Of a stretch of DNA of 64,000 bases, positions 1 through 60,484 are shown in pieces; the first letter of the stretch is position 1, and the number at the start of each line of letters is the position of its first letter. This DNA is from Solirubrobacterales bacterium (GTDB lineage: Bacteria; Actinomycetota; Thermoleophilia; Solirubrobacterales; JACPNS01). Under the pieces are notes generated by a model. The model was not told the origin of the DNA. It ran no database searches and saw only the letters and a list, made by a program, of their open reading frames with translations. The DNA lies in the NCBI GenBank assembly GCA_047605325.1, contig JASGFX010000004.1:14957-78956 (forward strand). The letters run 5' to 3'. A program made the position numbers and the translations under genes.

Positions 1-539
1 TCAGTTTCGGACAGCACCATTTTCTCGCGAGCATTTATGTCGCCATGAAACTTCACGACCTCGCGCATGCTCGGATAGTGGCGACGGGCGCTTAGAACTT
101 CGGGAAAGTCAGCCTCTTGGACTAGCCGTTGACAGCGTCCGCCAGCGAGAGAAATGGAGCGTTCGATGAAACTGTCGTAGTTCGTCGTGTAAATCACCGG
201 GCAACCTTCCAGGGCGGCCAATTTCACGTGAATCGCGGAGAGAAGGAGCGCCTCATCAGGCGCATCCAGCTGAGTGAAAAGCCAGTTCAAGAGTTCGTCC
301 TTCTTGCCCTTTCGAGCGAGGAACTCAAGAATCTGCAGATCGGTTCCACGCACCCGAAGCAAGTCTGCATCTTCGAACTCCAGAATCTTTGCCGCCTGGT
401 TGACCAACTCGGGCCAGTTGGGGGGCCGAAATTCCTTTTCGTCAACTTTCCATCTCACAGACGCGGAAACACCAGCACCCACAAACGGGATCAATCGGCC
501 CTCTGCGTAGGAGCTTTTCAGGTCGGGCGGGATCTCCAC
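1..539 (-). CDS. SIR2-like (defence-type SIR2_2) domain protein, N-terminal part only; gene runs off the left edge
   Basis: Absent from the ORF track because it has no stop inside the window. My minus-strand translation from GTG at 539 reads VEIPPDLKSSYAEGRLIPFVGAGVSASV..NWPELVNQAAKIL..CPVIYTTNYDSFIERS..REVVKFHGDINAREKMVLSETD. The ordered GAGxS, TTNYD..E and xHGD motifs are typical of SIR2_2 domains. The GTG shares one base with the TAG stop of the upstream methyltransferase gene. Confidence 0.7.
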   Translation of the reverse strand, partial: MEIPPDLKSSYAEGRLIPFVGAGVSASVRWKVDEKEFRPPNWPELVNQAAKILEFEDADLLRVRGTDLQILEFLARKGKKDELLNWLFTQLDAPDEALLLSAIHVKLAALEGCPVIYTTNYDSFIERSISLAGGRCQRLVQEADFPEVLSARRHYPSMREVVKFHGDINAREKMVLSET

Positions 540-1162
540 TAGTCCGAAGCCTTTCGGGCAATGATTCTCGTCATGCTGTGAACATGCGGGATCCGATTGT
601 GAGGGTGCGACTCTTGGAGATCCTCGTCGGTGGCGTGCTCAAGGCGCCAGCCAGCAAAGCTCCCTAGGTACTCGTCGTGCGGAACTAGCGTCGGTTCAAA
701 ACCCGGGTGCGCCGTCAAATCTTGGTGGCGATCGTTGAAGGCGCAGAGCACGAACAGGCCGCCCGGCCGAACCGATATCTGAATTTTTTCAACGAGTTCG
801 AAAACCTCATCACGATTGGCCATGCAATGGGTTAGGCCGTACGCGATCGCCATGTCGAAGACCCCCTCACCGAGTTTGGACTCGCGAACGTCCGCGGTGC
901 GCCAAGTGACACTCTTAGGGATCCCGCCAAATTGCGTCACTCCGTTCTGTCTAGCCGTCGAAGAAACCTCAATTGCGAGGACGTCAGCCCCGAGGTCCGC
1001 TAGATGTACGGCGTTCTTTCCCTCGCCCGCTCCCACGTCGAGGACGTTCGCCCCAACGGGATCGAATCCGCTCTCGAGTGCAATTTTGACGAGCGAACCC
1101 GGTCCCTCACCCCAGAGGCACGGAACCGCCTGATATCCGTCTTCGTATCCGCCAGCCATCAA
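539..1162 (-). CDS. class I SAM-dependent methyltransferase (TehB-like)
   Basis: 207-aa ORF. SAM-binding motif I VLDVGAGEGKNAVHLA and acidic loop VLAIEVS are present. Overall layout resembles small-molecule TehB-type methyltransferases. Confidence 0.75.
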   Translation of the reverse strand: MMAGGYEDGYQAVPCLWGEGPGSLVKIALESGFDPVGANVLDVGAGEGKNAVHLADLGADVLAIEVSSTARQNGVTQFGGIPKSVTWRTADVRESKLGEGVFDMAIAYGLTHCMANRDEVFELVEKIQISVRPGGLFVLCAFNDRHQDLTAHPGFEPTLVPHDEYLGSFAGWRLEHATDEDLQESHPHNRIPHVHSMTRIIARKASD

Positions 1163-1260
1163 AGTTCACCCATCAAAGATTCGATAACTCATCCAGCGTG
1201 TAGATTCGCGCCGAATGCGCGTGGGGAAGATACCGGATATTTGGGGGCACAACTCTGGCT

Positions 1261-2145
1261 ATGACCCAGTCCTTCATTAAGTGGGCGGGCGGGAAATCCT
1301 GGTTGGCCGAAGCGGTGGGCCAGCTCCTCGGGGAACCCCGAGGTCGCTACATCGAACCCTTTGTCGGATCAGGGGCTGTGTTTTTTGAGCTCGAGCCGGC
1401 GAGGGCCGTTCTCTCGGACGCCAATTCTGAGCTCGTAAATGCACTCAAGGTGGTTCGCGACAACCCTGGGGCACTTAAGGGCCAGCTGCGCCGAAAAACG
1501 ATCTCTGCGGAGCATTTTCTCGCTATACGTGCGAGTAGGCCAAAGAGCGAAGTCGGTCGTGCGGCACGATTTGTGTATCTAAACCGGACCGCGTTTAACG
1601 GCATTTGGAGGGTGAACAGGCAGGGTGACTTCAACGTTCCGTTCGGATGCAAGCCAGGCACTGTCTTGTTCTCATCCGACGGGATCGACGCGTGCTCAAT
1701 TGCCCTCGCAAACGCAGATTTAGAAGTAAATGACTTTCGAGCTTCCCTGACCAAAGTTCAGACGAAAGACTCCGTCTATGTCGACCCGCCATACACGGTG
1801 AGCCACAACAACAATGGCTTTCGTCGCTACAACGAGAAGATTTTCAGCTGGGACGACCAACGGGATCTCGCCGCACGCGTGAACGGGCTCGGCAAACGCG
1901 GCGTCCGAGTCGTGGTTTCAAACGCTCACCACCGTCAGCTCGCGGAGTTGTACAGCGACGAGTGGCTCTCGTTCGCCGAGGTTCGTCGTCAAACCCGTAT
2001 TGCAGGCAGCGCAGAGCACCGTGGAATCACGTCTGAGCTCGTGATTGCGACGAAGCAGATCGCCCCGTCCAACAAAGTGCTTGCTGCTCGGCTTCGTGGT
2101 GCTGGAGTGGCGGCACGCGCTCTGCCCGTTCGCCGGGGGGATTGA
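1261..2145 (+). CDS. dam: DNA adenine methyltransferase, Dam / D12 class N6-MTase
   Basis: 294 aa. N-terminal KWAGGK, motif I EPFVGSGAV and catalytic DPPY are all present in the alpha-group order. Confidence 0.88.
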   Translation: MTQSFIKWAGGKSWLAEAVGQLLGEPRGRYIEPFVGSGAVFFELEPARAVLSDANSELVNALKVVRDNPGALKGQLRRKTISAEHFLAIRASRPKSEVGRAARFVYLNRTAFNGIWRVNRQGDFNVPFGCKPGTVLFSSDGIDACSIALANADLEVNDFRASLTKVQTKDSVYVDPPYTVSHNNNGFRRYNEKIFSWDDQRDLAARVNGLGKRGVRVVVSNAHHRQLAELYSDEWLSFAEVRRQTRIAGSAEHRGITSELVIATKQIAPSNKVLAARLRGAGVAARALPVRRGD

Positions 2146-3683
2146 TGGGCCACTTTCTCCGAGTTGCTGAAAAGGTTCTTCGCACAACGTCGAGGCCGAT
2201 GAGCGCTCGCGAGATCGTCGATGTCGCACTTCGAGATCGGATGCTCGAGTCCGCCGGAAAGACGCCGTCACAGACGATGAAGGCGAAGCTCAGCGTGGAG
2301 ATTCGCAGCAAAGGTCCCGAGTCGATGTTCGTGCGGACGTCGCCTGGCAGGTTTTATCTGAGATCCCTGCTCGAAGACGAAAGCGGAATCTACGAGGCAC
2401 CGCCATTGACCCCTCCGCCCCCCGAAGAACAAGTCCTTGTGTATCCGGCGACGCTCTTCGATGCGATCAACCGACCCCAAGGGCTCATCGTTCGAGGAAA
2501 GGCCTTCGATGACTTGCGGCGGCTCTTGCGCGAAACTGACTCGCATTACATTGACCGTCTTGAGGCGGAGGCGACAGAGGATTTCAAGCAAGCTCTCACC
2601 TACGTGCTGGTCACCCGGGGAAACCAAGTGCTTTGCTTCCAGCGGGGCAGCTACAACCGCGTGGCGGATTTTCTTCGCGGTGCTCGTTGCATCGGCTTTG
2701 GCGGACACGTCACATCTGCGGACGCCACGCTGTTCAGCGCCGAGGACAACGGAATTCTTGGAAACGCCGCCCGGGAGCTAGCCGAAGAACTGAAGCTCCC
2801 AGACGCCGACAAACGTCGGCTTGAGTTCGGTGAGGGGATCGAGCTCGTCGGGATCATCAATGACGACTCGTCGTCTGTTGGCCGAAGACACGTTGCAGCT
2901 GTGTACAGATACGAGGTCAGCGACTCGTCGTCGTGGTCCGAACCCGAACGTGGCGAGAAATCGATAACCCAACTCGGGTGGCTTGATATCGGCAGTGAAA
3001 CTGTCCGGCTCGAAGAGTTCGAGTATTGGTCGCAGTTGTGCCTAAGTGGGTACTTCGGTTCTTCCGTCAAGGGTGCGCCCTCATTCAACATCCGGCGAAA
3101 GCTTGACCTCTCTGGCAAGCACATTCTCGTGATCATGGGAGAAATCGGAAGCGGTAAATCATCAATGACTTCCGTACTCACGAGCGATTTTGGTTACACC
3201 GAGGTCAACAGCGGTGCTGCACTTGCGGAACTCCTTGACCTGCCAAAGTTGGCGCCTGCGGGCGAGTCTGGGCGCGCGGAATTTCAGAACGCCGCGGCTT
3301 CGTTCATCAATTCGCCAGACGGCCCGCGAAAGCTCGCGATCGAGATACTTCGTCGCGCTCGCGAGTCCGGCGCGGATCGAGTGGTCGTCGATGGGATCCG
3401 TCAACGCGCGACACTGGATGCAATTCGTGACGCAGCCGAACATCCGATATACACAGTGTACGTGCATACCCCCCCGGATGTAGCCTTCCGCCTGTACAAG
3501 AGCCGTCGCGGTGACAATCCGACCGTTCAGGAGTTTGTCGAGGTGCGGGAAGCGGAGGTTGAGAGCGAAGTGGCTGAAATGATCCAAGTGGCCGACACGG
3601 TCGTGTACAACTGGATTGGCCAGGGGGCATTCCGAACTGTGATCCGCTCGGTGATGGGTGACCTCGGAGTTACTCGATCCTGA
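2142..3683 (+). CDS. three-domain fusion: HARE-HTH winged helix + Nudix-like hydrolase + P-loop nucleotide/nucleoside kinase-like domain
   Basis: 513 aa. The N-terminus MSAREIVDVAL..GKTPSQTMKAKLSVEI..FVRTSPGRFYLR matches the HARE-HTH pattern. The middle has a Nudix-box-like GGHV..GNAARELAEELKL. The C-terminus has Walker A ILVIMGEIGSGKSS and Walker-B-like RVVVDGIR. The ATG overlaps the dam stop (ATGA). Confidence 0.7.
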   Translation: MMGHFLRVAEKVLRTTSRPMSAREIVDVALRDRMLESAGKTPSQTMKAKLSVEIRSKGPESMFVRTSPGRFYLRSLLEDESGIYEAPPLTPPPPEEQVLVYPATLFDAINRPQGLIVRGKAFDDLRRLLRETDSHYIDRLEAEATEDFKQALTYVLVTRGNQVLCFQRGSYNRVADFLRGARCIGFGGHVTSADATLFSAEDNGILGNAARELAEELKLPDADKRRLEFGEGIELVGIINDDSSSVGRRHVAAVYRYEVSDSSSWSEPERGEKSITQLGWLDIGSETVRLEEFEYWSQLCLSGYFGSSVKGAPSFNIRRKLDLSGKHILVIMGEIGSGKSSMTSVLTSDFGYTEVNSGAALAELLDLPKLAPAGESGRAEFQNAAASFINSPDGPRKLAIEILRRARESGADRVVVDGIRQRATLDAIRDAAEHPIYTVYVHTPPDVAFRLYKSRRGDNPTVQEFVEVREAEVESEVAEMIQVADTVVYNWIGQGAFRTVIRSVMGDLGVTRS

Positions 3684-3698
3684 CGATCCCAGCCTGGC

Positions 3699-5210
3699 CT
3701 AGCAAAGATCAAGATCCTGCGTCACGACGGGATTCCTCGCCGCAGCCGCCTCATCCAAACGCCGCACCGGCGTCGTGTACGGCGCGTTCTTCACGAACTC
3801 AGCGTCGCGCTCGGACTCTTCGAGGATCTGATCGAGAGCGTCGATGAAGCCGTCGAGCGTCTCCATCGTCTCGGTCTCGGTCGGCTCGATCATCAGCGCC
3901 TCGTCGACGAGCAACGGGAAGTAGATCGTCGGCGGGTGGTAGCCCAGATCAAGCAGGCGCTTGGCGATGTCGGTGGCGCGCACGTCGAGGTCGCGCTTGG
4001 CCGGTGAAGCCGAGAGCACGTACTCGTGCTTGCACGTGCGATCAAACTCAACCGGCAGGTACTTCGCAACGCGCTCCTTCTTCTTGCCCTGCTCGAGCAT
4101 GTAGTTGGCGTTCAGCACGGCCGTCTCGGAGGCGGCCTTCAGGCCCTCGCCGCCGAGCGAGAGGATGTACGCGTAGGTGCGCACGAACACGCCGAAGTTG
4201 CCCTGGAAGCCGCGCAGGCGGCCGATGCTCTTGGGCTGGTCGAAGTCGTAGGCAAAGCGGCCGTCCTTCTTTGCAACCCGCGGCACCGGCAGATACGGGG
4301 CCATGCGCTCGGAGACCGCGATTGGGCCGCTGCCCGGACCGCCGCCGCCGTGCGGCTGCGTGAACGACTTGTGCAGGTTCATGTGGACGATGTCAAAGCC
4401 CATGTCGCCCGGGCGCGAGATGCCCATCACCGCGTTGAGGTTCGCGCCGTCGTAGTAGAGCGTCGCGCCTACCGAGTGCATGATCTCGGCGATCTCCTCG
4501 ATGTTCTCGTCGAACAGGCCCAGGGTGTTGGGGTTCGTGAGCATCAGGCAGGCGACATCCGTGGTCGCCTTCTCGCGCAGGTCGTCGATGTCGACTCCCC
4601 CGCGCTCGTTGGTCGCCACCTTGACCGTTTCGTATCCGGCCATCGTGACCGTCGCCGGGTTGGTGCCGTGCGAGGTGTCGGGGGCGAGAACCTTCGTGCG
4701 GTGCTCGCCGCGGTCCTCGTGGTAGGCCTTCGTCAGCAGCACTCCGGCGAGCTCGCCGTGGCTCCCGGCGCTCGGCTGGAGGCAAACGTGCGGCAGGCCC
4801 GTGATCTCGCTGAGCGCGCCCTCGAGGTAGTACATCAGCTCCAGCGCGCCCTGGGCACGGTCACTGTTCTGCAGCGGGTGCAGACGAGAAAAGCCGGGCA
4901 GCGCCGCGGCGCGCTCGTGCAGCTTCGGGTTGTGCTTCATCGTGCACGAGCCGAGCGGGTAGAAGCCGCTGTCGAGGTCGAAGTTGCGGCGGCTGAGCTT
5001 GTTGTAGTGGCGGACGATCTCGGGCTCGGCGATCTCCGGCAGACGCGCCGGCGCCTTGCGGATCGCGCCCTCCGGCAGCAATTCGGAGACGTCGCGGTCG
5101 GGCACATCGAGTGCTGGCAGCGCGCTCGCGCGGCGGCCCGGCTTGGACTTCTCGTAGATCGTCGTGGCCTTCTCGGCCTGCATCGGGGTTTCGGTGACGT
5201 TGACGGTCAT
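3699..5210 (-). CDS. gcvPB: glycine dehydrogenase (aminomethyl-transferring) subunit 2
   Basis: 503 aa. PLP-lysine region [18 protein letters not shown] is present. Overlaps the gcvPA stop. Confidence 0.93.
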
Positions 5211-24129: not shown

Positions 24130-25106
24130 CGCAGCGGCTCCAGACCGAGCGGCGGCTCGGGCGAACGGTCGGCGGCGATCTTCTTGGCGACGCGCAACTT
24201 CGCCGAGCGAGCGCGTGAATTCTCCGCCACTTCGTCTTCGCTCGGCGCGATCGCGCGACGGCTGACGAGTTCGGCCTGCGGCGTGCGTCCACAGGTGCAG
24301 ATCGGAAACTCCGGCGGGCAGATGCAGCCGTTGGCAAGGTCGGCGAAAAACCGCTTGGTCATGCGGTCCTCGAGCGAGTGGAACGAGATCACTGCCATGC
24401 GGCCCCCGATGCTGAGGGCGTCCCAAGCACTCGGCAGCGCGCGCTCGAGCTGGCCGAGTTCGTCGTTGACGGCGATCCGGATCGCCTGGAAGACGCGCTT
24501 TGCCGGGTGGCCAGCACCGAAGCGTGCGGGGGTCGGAATCGCAGCGACGATCGCTTCGACGAGCTGCTCCGTGCTCTCGATCGGATCGGACTCGCGGCGC
24601 CGCACGATCTCCCGCGCGATCTGCCTTGAATAGCGCTCCTCCCCATACCTGTCAAAGATGTTCGACAAACGTCGCTCATCCCATGCATTGACCAGGTCGG
24701 TCGCGTTGAAGTCCTGCTGCGGATCCATGCGCATGTCGAGCGGCGCGTCGTAGACATATGAGAAGCCGCGCTCGAGCGAATCGATCTGGAAAGACGAGAC
24801 ACCGAGATCGAGCAAGATCACGTCGGCGCCGAGCTGCTCCTCGGCGAGTTCGGCGAGCGCTGCGGAGAAGTCCTCGTGGATGAAGCGGGTCTCGCAGCGC
24901 GCCTCGGCCGCGAAGTCCTCGAAGCGCGAGTGCGCGGCCGGGTCGCGATCGATCCCGATCACGAGCCCGTCGGGACTGACGCGCTCCGCCAGCAGGCGTG
25001 CGTGACCACCGCCGCCAAACGTGCAGTCGACGACCGTCTCGCCGTTCACCGGCGATGTGAGGTCGATGACCTCCCTGCTCAGCACGGGTACGTGTGCGCT
25101 CGTCAT
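24126..25106 (-). CDS. rsmH: 16S rRNA (cytosine1402-N4)-methyltransferase
   Basis: Trimmed to the ATG at 25106 (MTSAHVPVLSREVIDL). Contains DCTFGGGGH and ILLDLGVSSFQ motifs. Confidence 0.93.
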   Translation of the reverse strand: MTSAHVPVLSREVIDLTSPVNGETVVDCTFGGGGHARLLAERVSPDGLVIGIDRDPAAHSRFEDFAAEARCETRFIHEDFSAALAELAEEQLGADVILLDLGVSSFQIDSLERGFSYVYDAPLDMRMDPQQDFNATDLVNAWDERRLSNIFDRYGEERYSRQIAREIVRRRESDPIESTEQLVEAIVAAIPTPARFGAGHPAKRVFQAIRIAVNDELGQLERALPSAWDALSIGGRMAVISFHSLEDRMTKRFFADLANGCICPPEFPICTCGRTPQAELVSRRAIAPSEDEVAENSRARSAKLRVAKKIAADRSPEPPLGLEPLR

Positions 25107-25107
25107 C

Positions 25108-25542
25108 TCAGCCAGCACTGACAATCTTCGCCACCGTCGTCTTGAGATTGGCCGCCACATCGGCGCTGCGCGCGGCCCAGCCGTCCGGGCTCCAGAGCTG
25201 CACGTGGTCGAAGGCGCCGACCACGACGACTTCCTTCTCTATCCCGGCGTGACCGAGGATGTCGGTCGGAATCATCGCGCGGCCGGCCTTGTCGAGTTCG
25301 CTGTCGAACGAGTTGCCCGAGAACCAGACGTTCATCGCACGGGCTTCTTCACTCAGCGGGTGCAGGTCGCGCAGGAAGCCGTCGGTGTAGGCGTCGAATC
25401 CATCCGGAGTCCAGATCGCGGCGCAGGCCTCGAGCGATTTGCCGATCACGACCTCCCCGCCGAGCTGATCGCGCAGCTTCGAGGGGATCGTGAGGCGGTT
25501 CTTCGCGTCGAGTGTGTGTTCGTAGTTGCCGCGGAAGGCCAT
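25108..25542 (-). CDS. mraZ: transcriptional regulator MraZ
   Basis: Trimmed to the ATG at 25542 (MAFRGNYEHTLDAKNRLTIPSKLR). A duplicated DxxxR/SpoVT-AbrB pattern is present. Confidence 0.92.
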   Translation of the reverse strand: MAFRGNYEHTLDAKNRLTIPSKLRDQLGGEVVIGKSLEACAAIWTPDGFDAYTDGFLRDLHPLSEEARAMNVWFSGNSFDSELDKAGRAMIPTDILGHAGIEKEVVVVGAFDHVQLWSPDGWAARSADVAANLKTTVAKIVSAG

Positions 25543-25631
25543 CGGGTGAATCCTGAAATCGAGGAGCTTTGACGCGAGACCGGGGAGATCGAGCGGGAGG
25601 AACTCCACCTCCCCGGCCCGCGAAGCTGGTT

Positions 25632-25663
25632 GCCACTTTACCCCACATCGACCCACTTTTCAA
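25632..25663 (-). promoter_or_regulatory. candidate dcw promoter with three overlapping MraZ-box direct repeats
   Basis: The minus strand reads TTGAAA-17 nt-TAAAGT. Within and after it are GTGGG(tcgat)GTGGG(gtaaa)GTGGC, three pentamers with exact 10-nt phasing, about 90 nt upstream of mraZ. Confidence 0.6.
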
Positions 25664-25774
25664 CACAATTGAACATTTCTTGTTTTCGCAACCGCGATTG
25701 CAGGCCGCCGGGCGAAGCAGGACCGGAAGCGGCGAAAAACCGGCCCCGATCATCTGTCCAGCCAGCCAAACATG

Positions 25775-25791
25775 ACTCGCGACTCGCGAGT
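25775..25791. promoter_or_regulatory. palindrome ACTCGCGA-C-TCGCGAGT, candidate TetR-family operator
   Basis: Perfect 8-bp inverted repeat in the mraZ/tetR divergent intergenic region, about 95 nt upstream of the TetR start. Confidence 0.35.
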
Positions 25792-25885
25792 ACGATCGAT
25801 TCACGCTTCGAACTTCGCCGGTCTGGGGAAAGAGATCGGACGAGGCCGAAGACAACTAGTCCGCCTCCTGAATGGGGAGCTCAAA

Positions 25886-26584
25886 ATGAAGACCCAACGA
25901 ATCTCGAACGCGACCGGGGTTCCTGAAACCAACCAAGGCGCCGCCGCGCGCGCCCGACTGCCACGGCCGGTACGCGAGCAGCAGATGCTGGAAGCCGCCT
26001 CCGTGCTGTTCGGCGAGCAGGGCTACCACGCGGTCTCGATGGATCAGATCGCTGACGCCGTCGGAATCTCCAAGCCGATGCTTTACGCCTACTTCGATTC
26101 GAAGGAAGGCCTCTGCGCCGCATGCCTCAAGCGGGCCGGCGCCGATGCGATCACAGCGATCAGCACCTCATACGAGCCGGGCTCGACACCCGAGCAGTCG
26201 CTCTGGTCGGGCTTCCTCGCCTTCTTCAACTTCGTCAAGCGCGAGCCCCAGAGCTGGCGCCTGATCCGCAGCCAGGCCAGCTACGACGTCGGGATCTTCC
26301 AGGAGATGGTCGCCGACATCCACAACGATCTGCTGTCGGTGATCCAGGAGCTCGAAAAGGTCGCGTCACGCGAGACGGCCGGCGATCCCTTCGCCGACGA
26401 CGAGACGCGGATCGCGGCTTCCTACGCGCTGTTCGGCGCGGCCTCCTCACTCGCGGACCGCTGGCTCGACAGCGAATGCGAGACGCCGGCCGAGGATTCC
26501 GCGACCCAGTTGATGAACTTCTTCTGGGTCGGGATTCGAGCGATGGCCGACGGCGAGAACTGGACCCCGCTCACAGAATCCTGA
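25886..26584 (+). CDS. TetR/AcrR family transcriptional regulator
   Basis: Trimmed to the ATG at 25886, preceded by GGGGAG. HTH region is VSMDQIADAVGISKPMLYAYFDSKEGL. Confidence 0.85.
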   Translation: MKTQRISNATGVPETNQGAAARARLPRPVREQQMLEAASVLFGEQGYHAVSMDQIADAVGISKPMLYAYFDSKEGLCAACLKRAGADAITAISTSYEPGSTPEQSLWSGFLAFFNFVKREPQSWRLIRSQASYDVGIFQEMVADIHNDLLSVIQELEKVASRETAGDPFADDETRIAASYALFGAASSLADRWLDSECETPAEDSATQLMNFFWVGIRAMADGENWTPLTES

Positions 26585-42556: not shown

Positions 42557-43615
42557 CTAGGCGGCGCGCAACGCTACTGCCTCCGGGTCCTGCGCGAGGC
42601 GCTTGAGTGCGGCGTTCTCGATCTCACGGACGCGGGCGGCAGTCATGCCAGAACCGCGCGCGATCGCCTCGGCGGTGCGGGGCTCGCCGCCAGCCAGGCC
42701 GTAACGCTCGGCGAGCACGTGGCGCTCGTCCGGTGAGAGGCGGGAAAGCAGGCGCGTGATCTTGCGCTGACGCTCAGCCTCGACCGCGAACTCCTCCGGA
42801 GTGATGGTGTCTTCGTCTTCGAGGAAGTCACCGAATTCCGAATCGCCCTCACCAACGGGCAGAGAAAGCGAAGTCGGCTTGAGCGCGGCAAGCTTGACGC
42901 GCTCGACCTCCTCGATCTCCATGTCGGTCGCCTCGGCGATCTCGGCGTCGGTGGGCTCGCGGGCGAGCTCGACGGCGAGACGACGGGTGGCCTTCTGGAT
43001 CTTGGCCAGCTGCTGCGCGACGTGAACCGGGAGACGCACGGTGCGGCCCTGGTTCTGGGTCGCGCGCTGCATCGACTGGCGGATCCACCATGTCGCGTAG
43101 GTGGAGAACTTGAAGCCCTTGCGCCAGTCGAACTTCTCGGCCGCGCGGTTGAGGCCGATGACGCCCTCCTGGATCAGGTCGCCGAACTCAAGACCCTGGT
43201 CGCGGTACTTGCCCGCGAGCTTGATCACGAGCTTCATGTTGTTCTCGATCAGCTGACGCTTGGCGACTTCGTCGCCGCGCTCGATGCGCTTGGCCAGGGT
43301 GACCTCCTGCTCGCGCGTGAGGATCTTGTGGCGGCTGGCGCGGTTGATGAAGTGACGGGTGAGGTCGCTCGGCAGCTCGGCGGAAACGGCGTGGTCGCTC
43401 AGCGCGCGCTTCTCGATCGCGGTCGCCTCGTCGTCTTCGCCCTTGATGATCGTGACATCGGCTTCGACCAGACGCGAGCGGACGTCGTCGAGCATGACCT
43501 CTTCGAGCTCGTGAACTTCAGCGAGCTCGAGCAGGCGCTCTTCGGTGACCGACTCGGCCTCGAGCAGTGCCCCGATCTCGGGAATCTCAAAAATGTCCTG
43601 CGTGAATGTTGCCAA
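42557..43615 (-). CDS. RNA polymerase sigma-70 family factor (RpoD/SigA-like, group 1 or 2)
   Basis: 352 aa. Region 2 (DLIQEGVIGLNRAAEKFDWRKGFKFSTYATWWIRQSMQRA) and region 4 (TAEAIARGSGMTAARVREIENAALKRL) are present. Apparent TTG start. Confidence 0.9.
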   Translation of the reverse strand: MATFTQDIFEIPEIGALLEAESVTEERLLELAEVHELEEVMLDDVRSRLVEADVTIIKGEDDEATAIEKRALSDHAVSAELPSDLTRHFINRASRHKILTREQEVTLAKRIERGDEVAKRQLIENNMKLVIKLAGKYRDQGLEFGDLIQEGVIGLNRAAEKFDWRKGFKFSTYATWWIRQSMQRATQNQGRTVRLPVHVAQQLAKIQKATRRLAVELAREPTDAEIAEATDMEIEEVERVKLAALKPTSLSLPVGEGDSEFGDFLEDEDTITPEEFAVEAERQRKITRLLSRLSPDERHVLAERYGLAGGEPRTAEAIARGSGMTAARVREIENAALKRLAQDPEAVALRAA

Positions 43616-44084
43616 TGTGTGCCTTGCTTTGTTGGGGATCTCTGCTGCTTTTACAGCCTGCGGCGCATGCGCGCCTGCCTCTTGAAAGGTCTGAGCCCTT
43701 GTGGGAGGCCCTGTACTGCGTATGAAGATGGTTGGCGCTCGGGAGGGGGATGGGGGCTCGGGCGCCGGATGGGGTTTGTTACTAAATGTTACAAGCTGCG
43801 TCTGACGGATGTCTCACTTCGTGAGGAGACTTCAACCTACCTGTTTCCTGCGTTTTTTGCGGCGACCTCACGCGGGGAACGAGTCAACCCACGCTTTGTC
43901 ACCTGAGCCGATCTCGGCCGCCGTGCGGTCCAAGTACGACCGTTCGCACTATAAGGAAAGATCCGGTCAATTGCAAGCCCAAATTGGGTATTGCCAGCCG
44001 GTTTTCAGCCTTTCGCCTATTGCACGTACCAATAACAACGGCATTCGGCGGAAAATGTTTCGCTTCCTGCGCTTTTCTGGACGG

Positions 44085-50712: not shown

Positions 50713-51899
50713 CTGTCGCTCTTCGCGTCGCCCCGCCCAAGCATCCGCAGTGCGAGCGACGGGAAGATCAGCACGGTCAGCACCGCTGCGGTGACCAGCG
50801 CGGCGGCCGTTGCAGGACGCATCCGGTCGTTCTCAAGGCCGATCGTGGTGATCGCGACGACCAGCGGTAGCTGCGTCGAGGCCAACAACGCCATCGGCTT
50901 CAGTTGCTCGCGCGGAAGAACATTGCGGTAGAGCGCCATCACGGGCAGTCCGCGTACGAGCAGCATCAGGAAGAAGAAGATCGGCAACAGGACGATTCCG
51001 CGCGTACTCGAGAACAGCGCGTTGATGTCGAGATTCATCCCGCTGACCACGAAGAAGAACGGAATGAGAAAGCCGAAACCGACGGCTTCCATCTTCGAGT
51101 CGAACACCTCGAAGTCGCCGTCGCCGACGATCAGGCGCATGATCATGCCGGCGGCGAACGCCCCGAGGATCACATCCATCCCGAGCGACCCGGCGATCAC
51201 GACCAGCGCAAAGACGAGCAGCACCGCCAGGCGCACCGGGAGCTGGCCGCTGTTGTCCATGCGAGCGGTGATGAAGTCGAACCAGCGGCTCGCCGCGCCG
51301 GTCGCGGCGATGCCGGTCAACACGGCGACGACGATGAATGCGACCAACAGCACGATCTGCTCAATCGCGCCCTCGGTTGCGGTCAGCAGAACCGTAACGA
51401 TCAGCACTGGTCCGAATTCGCCCACGGCACCGATCGCGAGGATGTTCTTTCCGAAGCCACCCGTCAGGCGACCCTCATCGCGCAGGATCGGGATCAGCGT
51501 TCCGATTGCGGTGGTTACGAGCGCCGAGCCGGTCAACAAGCCCGACCAGACGACGCCGGTCTCCTGCAGGACTGCTGCGATCGAATATGCCAGCCCGAGT
51601 GAGAGCAACCAGCCCCAGCCCGCAAATTTCAGGGGCTCGCCGCGGATCTGCTGCACACGGATCTCGTAGCCGGCGAAGAAGAACAGAAAGCCGAGGCCGA
51701 GCTGGCTGAAGGCGTTCAGCACGTCGTCGACATGGGCGACCTTCAGCACCTGCGGCCCGATGATCACTCCGAACAGCAGCTCGAGCACGACCACTGGCAG
51801 AACCAGGCTGCGCAGGCGCAGCGTTACAAGCCCGGCGACGATTGGAGCGAGCGCCGCAACGAGCAGAACAATCAGAAATGACTGGGTGTTGTCGAACAC
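50709..51899 (-). CDS. cation:proton antiporter (CPA family, Na+/H+ exchanger fold)
   Basis: 396 aa with about 12 TM helices. Glycine-rich helices are typical of PF00999-type exchangers. Confidence 0.7.
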   Translation of the reverse strand: MFDNTQSFLIVLLVAALAPIVAGLVTLRLRSLVLPVVVLELLFGVIIGPQVLKVAHVDDVLNAFSQLGLGFLFFFAGYEIRVQQIRGEPLKFAGWGWLLSLGLAYSIAAVLQETGVVWSGLLTGSALVTTAIGTLIPILRDEGRLTGGFGKNILAIGAVGEFGPVLIVTVLLTATEGAIEQIVLLVAFIVVAVLTGIAATGAASRWFDFITARMDNSGQLPVRLAVLLVFALVVIAGSLGMDVILGAFAAGMIMRLIVGDGDFEVFDSKMEAVGFGFLIPFFFVVSGMNLDINALFSSTRGIVLLPIFFFLMLLVRGLPVMALYRNVLPREQLKPMALLASTQLPLVVAITTIGLENDRMRPATAAALVTAAVLTVLIFPSLALRMLGRGDAKSDS

Positions 51900-52001
51900 G
51901 CCCCGCCCATCCTACGGGCAGCCGTTTTGGACAAATCGGCGACTTGCATCCTTCACAAGTGGATGACGACCGATCAGCGAGTCGCACCTAGAATCCGCCG
52001 C

Positions 52002-57945: not shown

Positions 57946-58056
57946 GGCGCTCTTGGCGGCCTTGTGTGAGTTCTCTTCGGAAGCTTCGATTGCGCGATAC
58001 TCCGCCCGACGGTGGACGGAATCGACCCACCTGAGACCGCAGTAGGGTTGACCGAA

Positions 58057-58842
58057 ATGCCAGAGCTACCCGAAATGACCGCATACCGCGAGAAGATCGC
58101 GGGCGCATTCGAAGGCGCAACGCTCGTCGAATGCGAGTTCACGCCAGATTGCAAGCTCGACGCGCCTGCAGAAGCGGTGACCGCGGCGATTCGCGGCGCC
58201 CAGCTCTCGCAGGTCGAGCGCAACGGCAAAGAACTCTTCCTCCACTTCGCGACCGGCGACACGGTTGCCGTGCATCTGATGCTCGGCGGACGGTTCAACG
58301 TCGCGCCGATCGAAGATGAGCCCCCGGACACGCGCGTCGCGACTTTCAAGTTCGACAACGGCAAGGCCTTGTACGTGCGAGACCGCGACGCCTGGGCGCG
58401 AATCAAGTTCAACCCGGAGGCGCCCAAGGCGCCTGACGCGCTCTCGTCCGAATTGAATGCGGAGTACCTGAAGAAACGCTTGGCCAGGTCTCGCAAAGCA
58501 ATCAAGGCCTTTCTGACCGACCAGGATCGCGTCAGGGGAATCGGCAACGCGTACTCAGACGAGATCCTCTGGGCCAGCCGCGTCGCTCCGCAGTCAACAT
58601 GCAACAAGGTGCCCGACGAGGCAGTGGAGGCTCTGGCCGAGGCGATCCACGAAGTGTTGGCCGAGGCCGTCGAGAACGTCTGCGCGCTGGACGATCCATC
58701 CGACTACCGAAAGGCTCGCCTGCGTGATCTGAAGGTCCACAACCACACCAGAGAGTTCTCACCGGGTGGCGCAAAGATCCAGACCGGCGAGGTTTCAAAG
58801 AGCAAGACTTACTTCACGGACGAGCAGGTCCTGTACTCGTAG
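58057..58842 (+). CDS. Fpg/Nei-family DNA glycosylase (zincless-finger type)
   Basis: Trimmed to the ATG at 58057 (MPELPEMTAY). H2TH motif RGIGNAYSDEILW is present. No CxxC zinc finger at the C-terminus. Confidence 0.85.
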   Translation: MPELPEMTAYREKIAGAFEGATLVECEFTPDCKLDAPAEAVTAAIRGAQLSQVERNGKELFLHFATGDTVAVHLMLGGRFNVAPIEDEPPDTRVATFKFDNGKALYVRDRDAWARIKFNPEAPKAPDALSSELNAEYLKKRLARSRKAIKAFLTDQDRVRGIGNAYSDEILWASRVAPQSTCNKVPDEAVEALAEAIHEVLAEAVENVCALDDPSDYRKARLRDLKVHNHTREFSPGGAKIQTGEVSKSKTYFTDEQVLYS

Positions 58843-58859
58843 TTCGATCGACCCGGGCG

Positions 58860-59282
58860 ATGACGAAAGCGCGGAACAAAACGCAGCCCACGACGTCGTC
58901 GGTCGAGGAGTTCCTGGATGCCGTGGCAGACCAGAAGCGACGCGAGGACGCCTTGGCGCTCTGCTCGATTCTGGAGGCGGCGACCGGCGTCGAGCCGGTG
59001 ATGTGGGGATCATCGATCGTCGGCTTCGGAACGCTTCACTACAAGTACCCGTCAGGACGCGAAGGCGACACCCCGGTCGTCGGTTTCTCGCCGCGCAAAG
59101 CGGCGTTGACGATCTACGGGTTGAAGTCCTACGAGAACAACGCCGAGGCTGTCGAACGGCTCGGTCCGGTGACCACCGGAAAGGGCTGCGTGTACATCAA
59201 GGACCTCGCCGCGATAGACCGCGAGATGCTCGGTCAGTTGGCTCGCGACGCATTCGCCGAGCGTTCGGCTACTCGTACCTGA
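58860..59282 (+). CDS. DUF1801 (YdhG-like) domain protein
   Basis: 140 aa. Pattern [35 protein letters not shown] fits the family. Confidence 0.6.
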
Positions 59283-60345: not shown

Positions 60346-60411
60346 CGAGCGGGTAGGCCGGATTCACGCCAGAAAGACGAAAACCCCGCTGGATCAGCGA
60401 GGTTTGCGTAG

Positions 60412-60484
60412 TACCGCCACGGGGATTCGAACCCCGGTTTCCGCCGTGAGAGGGCGGCGTCCTAGTCCCCTAGACGATGGCGGC
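60412..60484 (-). tRNA. tRNA-Glu (anticodon CUC)
   Basis: Minus strand reads GCCGCCATCGTCTAGGGGACTAGGACGCCGCCCTCTCACGGCGGAAACCGGGGTTCGAATCCCCGTGGCGGTA. It folds as a cloverleaf with T-loop GGTTCGAATCC and anticodon loop C-U-CUC-A-C. The acceptor stem has 7 bp, with a G1-U72 wobble. CCA is not encoded. Confidence 0.85.

Follow-up and report, generated by a model that had tools for sequence, protein, structure and literature searches.

Positions 1-3690 of a 64,000-nt stretch of a Solirubrobacterales metagenome-assembled genome (MAG; GenBank assembly GCA_047605325.1, contig JASGFX010000004.1, positions 14,957 to 78,956; hereafter the window) form a low-G+C island. It is read here as the right-hand portion of an anti-phage module of five genes that is of the Kongming type and was acquired horizontally. 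From its sequence the module is predicted to act by abortive infection through a methylated nucleotide signal, and a probability of about 0.6 is given to this reading. The island carries the start of a gene for a SIR2_2 NADase, genes for a class-I S-adenosylmethionine (SAM) methyltransferase and a Dam-family DNA methyltransferase, and a gene for a fusion of HARE-HTH, Nudix-like and kinase domains. The gene of a Ham1-family (HAM1) protein is expected just left of the window. An examination of the letters alone (the original prediction) had proposed a single module linked to nicotinamide adenine dinucleotide (NAD+) with a role in defence, and knew of no named system with this composition. The intuition of one NAD-linked defence module was right, but it has a named relative, as the SIR2 protein and its conserved HAM1 neighbour are homologous to KomC and KomB of Kongming (Zeng et al., bioRxiv 10.1101/2024.12.20.629578; KomBC structures 8zsf-8zsi, PMC13454610). 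In that system the adenosine deaminase KomA and a hijacked phage deoxynucleoside monophosphate (dNMP) kinase make deoxyinosine triphosphate (dITP), KomB (HAM1) binds it and KomC (SIR2) depletes NAD+ (bioRxiv 10.1101/2024.12.20.629578). Judged by homology, the module is an uncharacterised variant of the Kongming/KomBC kind.

Related loci and the conserved core

One genome per GTDB species was scanned with a profile of the fusion family, which yielded 64 loci. Gene content was established by tblastn with the window proteins and by all-against-all clustering of open reading frames (ORFs). The methyltransferase gene adjoined the fusion gene in 57/64 loci, SIR2 was present in 53/64 and a fourth conserved gene of ∼216 aa, directly after SIR2, in 53/64. 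The genes usually ran in the order fusion, methyltransferase, SIR2, HAM1, their stops and starts overlapping. The core is thus made up of the fusion of HARE-HTH, Nudix-like and nucleoside monophosphate (NMP) kinase domains, a TehB-like SAM methyltransferase, a 280-aa SIR2 and a 216-aa HAM1, and the catalytic motifs are conserved in all module parts. The four families of the island had been proposed to co-occur as one module; this held for the fusion, methyltransferase and SIR2 (adjacent in 53-57 of the 64 loci) but not for Dam (25/64).

The 64 loci span more than 12 phyla. They were found in Actinomycetota, Acidobacteriota, Alphaproteobacteria, Gammaproteobacteria, a "delta proteobacterium" MAG and Myxococcota, and also in Bacteroidota, Ignavibacteria, Verrucomicrobiota, Nitrospira, Chloroflexota, Armatimonadota, Binatia and Sericytochromatia. 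Cultured carriers include Bradyrhizobium, Rhodopseudomonas palustris BisB18, Methylobacterium and Sulfitobacter. Module G+C was below that of the flanks in all 46 loci with enough flanking sequence (mean difference 9 points), and the module tree was incongruent with taxonomy. The module has been transferred horizontally, as computation shows. Neighbouring genes were not conserved, the largest neighbour cluster having four members (an AAA_28 kinase upstream of Dam). The 150 immediate-neighbour ORFs of ∼40 loci included 4 resolvases, 4 phage-type integrases and 2 GajA proteins, together with type I restriction-modification subunits, HNH proteins and ordinary metabolic genes. The pattern is consistent with a small mobile cassette for defence that has been inserted at many sites; as evidence of a defence-island context it is only modest. 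Four loci (L032, L054, L057 and L064) had the fusion alone or shortened (∼220-300 aa matched), no SIR2 or HAM1, and an absent or degenerate methyltransferase; these look like decayed remnants of the module.

A putative KomBC-type effector pair

The SIR2 gene lies on the reverse strand (539..1, GTG start at 539-537) and its first 179 codons are in the window. The fragment matched Pfam SIR2_2 (E = 1.1e-8); its best match in the Protein Data Bank (PDB) was KomC (8zsf_D, E = 1.8e-15), and the catalytic histidine of the KFHGD motif was kept. A full-length, identical SIR2 from the same MAG (P0121) has 281 aa, made up of the SIR2 domain alone, so that ∼306 nt of the gene lie beyond position 1 and the window edge cuts the module. 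What had been described as a four-gene unit is therefore incomplete: SIR2 continues leftward and a fifth gene is expected beyond it. P0121 matched 9v0g_E (3.8e-34), KomC (2.8e-33) and ThsA (∼1e-8); a literature search on PDB code 9V0G found nothing relevant. The assignment of the gene to the defence-type SIR2_2 family is borne out by the Pfam and KomC matches, which also rule out a CobB-type sirtuin.

In the related loci SIR2 was followed directly by a Ham1-family gene of ∼216 aa (Pfam Ham1p_like, 5.6e-15), and tblastn found HAM1 in this place in every locus with downstream sequence (55 loci). HAM1 of one locus with the same layout as the window (L009) matched 9v0g_A (1.1e-22) and KomB (8.9e-22), compared with 1e-10 or worse for housekeeping inosine triphosphatases (ITPases). 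The catalytic aspartate was replaced by histidine (motif E-H-x-x-L) in 53/53 loci, a replacement that the Kongming authors describe as invariable in defensive HAM1 proteins (bioRxiv 10.1101/2024.12.20.629578). A profile search gave more than 1,300 clusters of the HAM1 family at 90% identity. By synteny with the related loci, the HAM1 gene of this MAG is expected just left of the window. The SIR2 and HAM1 proteins are considered likely, with more confidence than is placed in the module as a whole, to form a KomBC-type defence effector.

The ligand pocket differs from that of KomB. In KomB, dITP is read at the hypoxanthine O6 and at the 2' position by F140, Q141 and W142, with Gln141 contacting O6 and the 2' carbon, and mutating these residues abolishes defence (PMC13454610). 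The corresponding motif was FYWD in 50/53 loci and FQWD in 3/53. As Gln141 is tyrosine in the 50 loci, the HAM1 partner likely senses a ligand other than dITP.

The HARE-HTH/Nudix-like/kinase fusion protein

The fusion gene (2145/2142..3683, forward strand) encodes 512/513 aa. Its ATG (2145-2147; alternative TTG at 2142) overlaps the Dam stop (TGA, 2143-2145) by one base, so the junction is TGATG and not ATGA as had been read. The family is ∼510 aa long with ∼50% identity across phyla, and forms 142 clusters at 50% identity (E <= 1e-30), some of which are fragments or distant fused relatives without SIR2/HAM1. The closest homologue among GTDB species representatives was 55% identical. PLSDB plasmids and INPHARED phages contained no full-length homologue. 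An AlphaFold2 model of the fusion had a mean pLDDT (predicted local distance difference test score) of 87.9.

The HARE-HTH domain (2157..2369, forward strand; residues 6-76) was identified as predicted (Pfam, 7.6e-14) and is present in essentially all fusion homologues. The Nudix assignment of the middle domain (2421..3059, forward strand; residues ∼93-305) found no Pfam match at E <= 0.1, and stood by profile and structure: with a family profile of 21 sequences the domain matched TM1382, a Thermotoga putative Nudix hydrolase (3e57; profile E = 1.1e-11), and Foldseek matched it to 3e57 with E = 1.1e-11 and a TM-score of 0.81 normalised to the target. It also matched phrog_8902 (4.5e-23). The fusion keeps the REUxEE half of its Nudix box (R210, E211, L212, E214, E215), and this half was found in 57/60 family members.

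Stand-alone homologues of this domain were located elsewhere. A YmaB-type homologue lies directly after nrdE-nrdF on a B. licheniformis plasmid (L067, 4944-5561), and another is in Bacillus phage SP-15 (L068, 3812-4471), annotated as similar to B. subtilis BSU17400. Others (phrog_8902) are in large Bacillus, Listeria and Geobacillus phages, beside replication or nucleotide-metabolism genes; speculatively, the phage copies may counter nucleotide-based signalling. The position of YmaB-type homologues beside nrdE-nrdF links the domain with the metabolism of deoxynucleotides as opposed to that of ADP-ribose.

The kinase domain (3102..3662, forward strand; residues ∼320-506) has an NMP-kinase fold. 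As a P-loop kinase it was weak in Pfam and clear by profile and structure. Its profile matched the Sulfolobus AdkA-like proteins 3lw7/3h0k (3.3e-12), with adenylate kinases down to ∼1e-5, and Foldseek matched it to AMP-bound 3lw7 (TM-score 0.80 normalised to the target), followed by adenylate and UMP/CMP kinases. The Walker A motif (GSGKS) is present and was kept in 56/60 family members. The suggested likeness to the NadR kinase does not hold, the domain being of the NMP-kinase/AdkA type and not AAA_28; likewise, the TM1382/YmaB-type and NMP-kinase domains point to the chemistry of a nucleotide messenger in place of the ADP-ribose handling that had been envisaged. A regulator of the NadR/NrtR type was rejected: the HTH is an N-terminal HARE-HTH, the Nudix domain is of the TM1382/YmaB type, the kinase is AdkA-like and there is no NMNAT domain.

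Two groups of distant relatives share parts of this architecture. Five proteins of 738-753 aa (P0448, P0452, P0463, P0476 and P0498), 26-30% identical over all three domains, carry an extra C-terminal class-I SAM methyltransferase. That a methyltransferase is fused to HARE-HTH, Nudix and kinase domains in these relatives supports one pathway for the fusion and the methyltransferase. Their loci (L069-L073) are without SIR2/HAM1, and the partners of such four-domain fusions (P0448, P0476 and others) are small membrane, AAA or HATPase proteins. One lies among XRE-HTH/Peptidase_M78, AAA, PIN, Fic, transposase and SMC-like genes (L069), and another between a HATPase_c_3 protein and a second methyltransferase (L073). 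A 216-aa protein after the P0476 fusion (L072) was tried as a divergent HAM1 and rejected (hhalign probability 0.1; transmembrane helix). The second group comprises proteins of ∼308 aa with HARE-HTH and Nudix-like domains and no kinase, on two alphaproteobacterial plasmids, a Leisingera plasmid (NZ_CP081057; L065, 6992-9600) and Agrobacterium pTi CFBP5877 (L066, 7001-9618). They are 28-32% identical to fusion residues 1-306, and their genes overlap the start of a CHAT protease gene, with no SIR2/HAM1; the L066 gene sits among TIR, caspase, CHAT and S8-peptidase genes. The HARE-HTH/Nudix-like module seems to have been re-used with a different effector in these two loci. The contexts of both groups are rich in defence or mobility genes.

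The two methyltransferases

The methyltransferase of the core module (1159/1162..539, reverse strand; ATG at 1159, alternative TTG at 1162) has 206/207 aa and belongs to class I. It matched Pfam Methyltransf_25 (7.9e-11) and Methyltransf_11 (1.1e-10), and TehB weakly (1.5e-4). The family profile matched a Methanosarcina methyltransferase (6mro, 2.5e-18), TehB (1e-15) and phosphoethanolamine methyltransferases in the PDB. Since its closest solved relatives are these and the Methanosarcina enzyme is uncharacterised, the protein is taken to be of the small-molecule type and not a DNA or RNA methyltransferase. SAM motif I, [LI]DxG[CA]G[ED]G, was found in 53/57 orthologues. The proposed role is to modify the base of the signalling nucleotide.

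The Dam-family N6-adenine DNA methyltransferase (1261..2145, forward strand; 294 aa) matched TIGR00571 (1.7e-59; 201.7 bits against a cut-off of 114.85) and Pfam MethyltransfD12 (1.7e-39), and has the DPPY motif. Its orthologues usually lie directly upstream of the fusion gene and overlap it. They were present in 22/28 complete non-alphaproteobacterial loci and in 0/23 alphaproteobacterial loci. A neighbour-joining tree of fusion and methyltransferase gave two deep clades, the alphaproteobacterial one without Dam and the other including the window. In the second clade there were about four Dam losses, and the branching ignores taxonomy. Dam looks ancestral in the non-alphaproteobacterial clade and is a clade-specific accessory, not a core component. 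Its absence from the alphaproteobacterial clade means that a design built on a methylation mark, which the original prediction had coupled with NAD+ destruction, cannot be general.

The raw density of GATC, the canonical Dam site, was 7.6/kb in the island and 13.4/kb in 3691-64000, the island being lower in G+C. The AAA_28 gene noted above as the largest neighbour cluster encodes a NadR-like kinase of ∼200-230 aa directly upstream of Dam (L003, 8524-9114; L013, 1732-2712; L014, 8450-9136; L017, 1-747), and may be a further accessory kinase of the system. Type II restriction-modification was rejected: Dam is missing from 39/64 loci, and its coupled gene has no nuclease domain but encodes the fusion of HARE-HTH, Nudix-like and kinase domains. 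The related loci contained no conserved nuclease partner of Dam. A precedent for another role is that N6-methyl-dAMP (m6-dAMP) from Dam, freed during phage-induced degradation of the chromosome, triggers an unrelated defence system (bioRxiv 10.64898/2026.01.15.699771). It is plausible that Dam supplies the precursor of the signal; its distribution could equally reflect ancestry.

Composition and layout of the island

Positions 1-3690 have 57.7% G+C compared with 67.4% for 3691-64000 (z = -6.5). The lowest value among 284 other 3.69-kb windows was 63.6%, still above that of the island. The four island genes had 64-66% G+C at third codon positions (GC3), against 86-92% for gcvPB, gcvPA, gcvH and gcvT, whose identities at the right flank were confirmed with Pfam. 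The fusion stop (3681-3683) is 15 nt from the stop of the convergent gcvPB, which begins at 3699. The compositional island and its right boundary are real. The four 60-nt G+C counts on which the island was first proposed were exact (48.3%, 48.3%, 63.3% and 71.7%), and the dip survives both the sliding-window G+C and the codon-usage (GC3) analysis; the values of 48%, however, are local minima and do not describe the island as a whole. Milder dips were located at 25001-26000 (63.0%), 43001-44000 (61.5%), 51001-52000 (62.7%) and 58001-59000 (62.8%), against a window mean of ∼67%. The sole tRNA of the window, tRNA-Glu (anticodon CTC; 60411-60484, reverse strand), lies far off and shows no apparent connection with the island.

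The two divergent, overlapping gene pairs described earlier are present in 1-3690, and the TAG stop of the methyltransferase and the GTG start of SIR2 do have base 539 in common. HAM1, SIR2 and the methyltransferase on one strand with Dam and the fusion on the other is also the layout of L009. The 98-bp region between the two pairs (1163..1260), read from the sequence, presumably holds the promoters of both. A scan of this region with the sigma-70 consensus gave no match, which says nothing for an actinobacterial host.

Proposed mechanism

A SIR2 NADase would be paired with a HAM1 protein that is catalytically dead through its Asp to His replacement. By analogy with KomB, HAM1 would bind a non-canonical purine nucleotide triphosphate and turn on NAD+ hydrolysis by SIR2, and the loss of NAD+ would kill or arrest the infected cell. 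The analogy thus points to a ligand-gated SIR2-HAM1 NADase that causes abortive infection. Between them, the methyltransferase and the fusion would produce a base-methylated purine (deoxy)nucleotide and limit its level. Base modification would be the task of the methyltransferase and phosphorylation of the monophosphate towards the triphosphate that of the kinase domain, and the Nudix domain would either provide monophosphate substrate or clear basal signal. We infer that methyltransferase, kinase and Nudix domain together make and police the methylated messenger. The HARE-HTH domain may tie this activity to DNA or regulate the operon, and Dam, as an accessory, may barcode the chromosome with N6-methyladenine.

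Several observations weigh against this mechanism. The solved relatives of the methyltransferase act on tellurite or phosphoethanolamine or are uncharacterised. The first glutamate of the Nudix box is not conserved, and TM1382 itself carries no assigned activity. HAM1 is placed in this MAG by synteny. Defence and mobility genes are a minority of the neighbours in related loci, and the island is bordered on the right by the housekeeping gcv operon instead of a defence island. Models for the fusion and for HAM1 are lacking in PADLOC 2.0.0, which hence gives no independent classifier support.

Relation to known systems

The module shares with Kongming a stand-alone SIR2_2 NADase of 265-280 aa with the catalytic histidine of KFHGD, an adjacent HAM1 with the catalytic Asp to His change, KomC and KomB among the top PDB matches, and organisation as a short mobile operon. 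Unlike in Kongming, SIR2 precedes HAM1, and the module has further components in the TehB-like methyltransferase, the fusion and, for this clade, Dam. A kinase domain is built into the fusion, so that the kinase would be supplied by the system itself, where Kongming takes a dNMP kinase from the phage. The KomB residue Gln141, which reads base and sugar of dITP, is tyrosine here. The island had no KomA deaminase (PF00962), nor did the conserved gene set of the 64 loci include one, and no deaminase was among the 25 commonest Pfam families of the 150 neighbouring ORFs; the methyltransferase and the fusion stand where KomA would be.

KomBC modules without KomA have been reported to associate with genes for 5'-nucleotidase, for uracil-DNA glycosylase (UDG), for NTPase or for SAM-dependent methyltransferase (bioRxiv 10.1101/2024.12.20.629578, Fig. 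6E, fig. S19A). These "candidate types" likewise lack KomA and lie beside nucleotide-modifying genes including a SAM methyltransferase and an "NTPase", and the architecture described here is very probably one of them. The single sentence of text on the candidate types gives no domains for the fusion, does not mention an association with Dam, clades or the FYWD change, and reports no experiment. KomBC variants are expected to use other nucleotide signals (PMC13454610). A literature search found no paper characterising the methyltransferase variant and none on the combination of HARE-HTH, Nudix and SIR2.

Thoeris is similar in that a SIR2_2 NADase effector is switched on by a small-molecule signal, and ThsA was the best PADLOC model for SIR2 (6.7e-23). 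Kongming has been mislabelled as Thoeris owing to a match to the ThsA model (2026 NAR paper). Thoeris has a TIR protein, ThsB, and a SLOG or Macro sensor domain in ThsA, neither of which is present here; no TIR protein was found in the island or among the conserved neighbours. With no TIR, a protein of the SIR2 domain only, and a match of 1e-8 to ThsA against 1e-33 to KomC, Thoeris was ruled out. DSR2, SIR2-HerA and SIR2-pAgo systems were also rejected: there were only weak partial PADLOC or NCBIfam matches to Dsr2 and pAgo-associated SIR2, and no HerA or Ago in the conserved module.

PUA-Calcineurin-CE-HAD (bioRxiv 10.64898/2026.01.15.699771) is a precedent for the conversion of a chromosomal Dam mark into a soluble methylated deoxynucleotide danger signal, and such a route would give the Dam and the kinase of the operon a role. 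It differs from the module in that its proteins are unrelated, its effector depletes dNTPs and not NAD+, it senses the monophosphate directly and it uses the host's own Dam.

Alternative explanations

The source of the messenger could be the methylome. Dam, or CcrM in Alphaproteobacteria, would barcode the chromosome, its phage-induced breakdown would free N6-methyl-dAMP, and the kinase with a host nucleoside diphosphate kinase (NDK) would convert this to N6-methyl-dATP, which HAM1 would bind so that SIR2 fires; the core methyltransferase and Nudix domain would adjust or boost the signal. The idea refines the proposed mechanism and is not a true alternative to it, and it is given a low probability. 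Alphaproteobacteria generally have CcrM N6-adenine methylation, and none of their 23 loci has Dam. In 22/28 of the other loci the Dam gene immediately precedes, and overlaps, the gene of the fusion that bears the kinase. The Gln to Tyr change in HAM1 removes the residue that reads the O6 carbonyl, and m6-dAMP is already reported as the trigger of PUA-Calcineurin-CE-HAD (bioRxiv 10.64898/2026.01.15.699771). The route leaves the universally conserved SAM methyltransferase without a necessary role, however; moreover the distribution of Dam tracks a single deep clade split, which may be ancestry and not host methylome, and Dam was lost from five non-alphaproteobacterial loci. A self-contained pathway is given a similarly low probability. 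In it the operon's Dam, or host CcrM in Alphaproteobacteria, marks the chromosome, phage-driven DNA breakdown or the core methyltransferase acting on free dNMPs gives a methylated deoxypurine monophosphate, the kinase promotes it towards the triphosphate, the Nudix domain sets a threshold, and the tyrosine-bearing HAM1 reads the methylated dNTP and fires SIR2. The original prediction, read as a restriction-modification-like or epigenetic module in which HARE-HTH directly reads the Dam methylation state of DNA and triggers NAD+ destruction by SIR2 while the Nudix and kinase domains handle ADP-ribose or NAD precursors, is improbable. HARE-HTH domains are known from restriction-modification contexts, the Dam and HARE-HTH genes are adjacent and translationally coupled, and SIR2_2 NADases are defence effectors. 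Yet the 39 loci without Dam retain HARE-HTH, and there is no nuclease domain. The Nudix-like domain belongs to the nrdEF-linked YmaB/TM1382 type and is not an ADP-ribose pyrophosphatase or NrtR, and the kinase is of the NMP type and not NadR/AAA_28. A small-molecule trigger is, besides, implied by the constant pairing of SIR2 with a HAM1 that senses a ligand.

Two readings without a defence function were also considered, and both are given very little weight. Every domain family has housekeeping members and the flank is gcv, and homologues are labelled "XTP/dITP diphosphohydrolase" and "NUDIX phosphoesterase/dephospho-CoA kinase" by the Joint Genome Institute (JGI), as would suit a housekeeping or stress operon for nucleotide-pool sanitation and NAD metabolism in which ITPase, Nudix hydrolase and kinase act alongside a methyltransferase and a sirtuin deacetylase. 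Such an operon is difficult to reconcile with the Asp to His change in all 53 HAM1 proteins, a SIR2 of the SIR2_2/KomC and not the CobB type, the uniformly lower G+C of the module, its patchy cross-phylum distribution and a tree that departs from taxonomy, or with variable flanking genes that include recombinases and defence genes. The genes could instead make a methylated deoxynucleotide for the cell's own DNA, with SIR2 and HAM1 as part of the chemistry of self-DNA hypermodification. Methyltransferase, kinase, Nudix domain and a nucleotide-binding HAM1 would be a plausible nucleotide-modification pathway, Dam is co-located, and a homologue of the Nudix-like domain occurs in phage SP-15, whose DNA is hypermodified. 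No polymerase, glycosylase or base-installing transferase is conserved nearby, however, and the closest solved homologues of SIR2 and HAM1 form a ligand-switched NADase effector.

Significance

Kongming established that a base-modified nucleotide, dITP, can be an immune messenger (bioRxiv 10.1101/2024.12.20.629578). That KomBC modules associated with other nucleotide enzymes would use other messengers was predicted by the Kongming authors and in the structure paper. The interest of the present module lies in a predicted second, probably methylated, nucleotide messenger and in a possible link to chromosomal methylation. The parts of the variant predict methylation that depends on SAM, a kinase of the system's own in place of one from the phage, a brake in the form of the Nudix domain, an altered ligand pocket and a clade-specific Dam. 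If the self-contained pathway described above is real, bacteria would have a new immune messenger in a methylated nucleotide triphosphate, and the KomBC effector would have been re-tuned to a second ligand. Working out the variant would define a second KomBC ligand, and would reveal if methylation of the chromosome contributes to immune signalling in a second system unrelated to the first.

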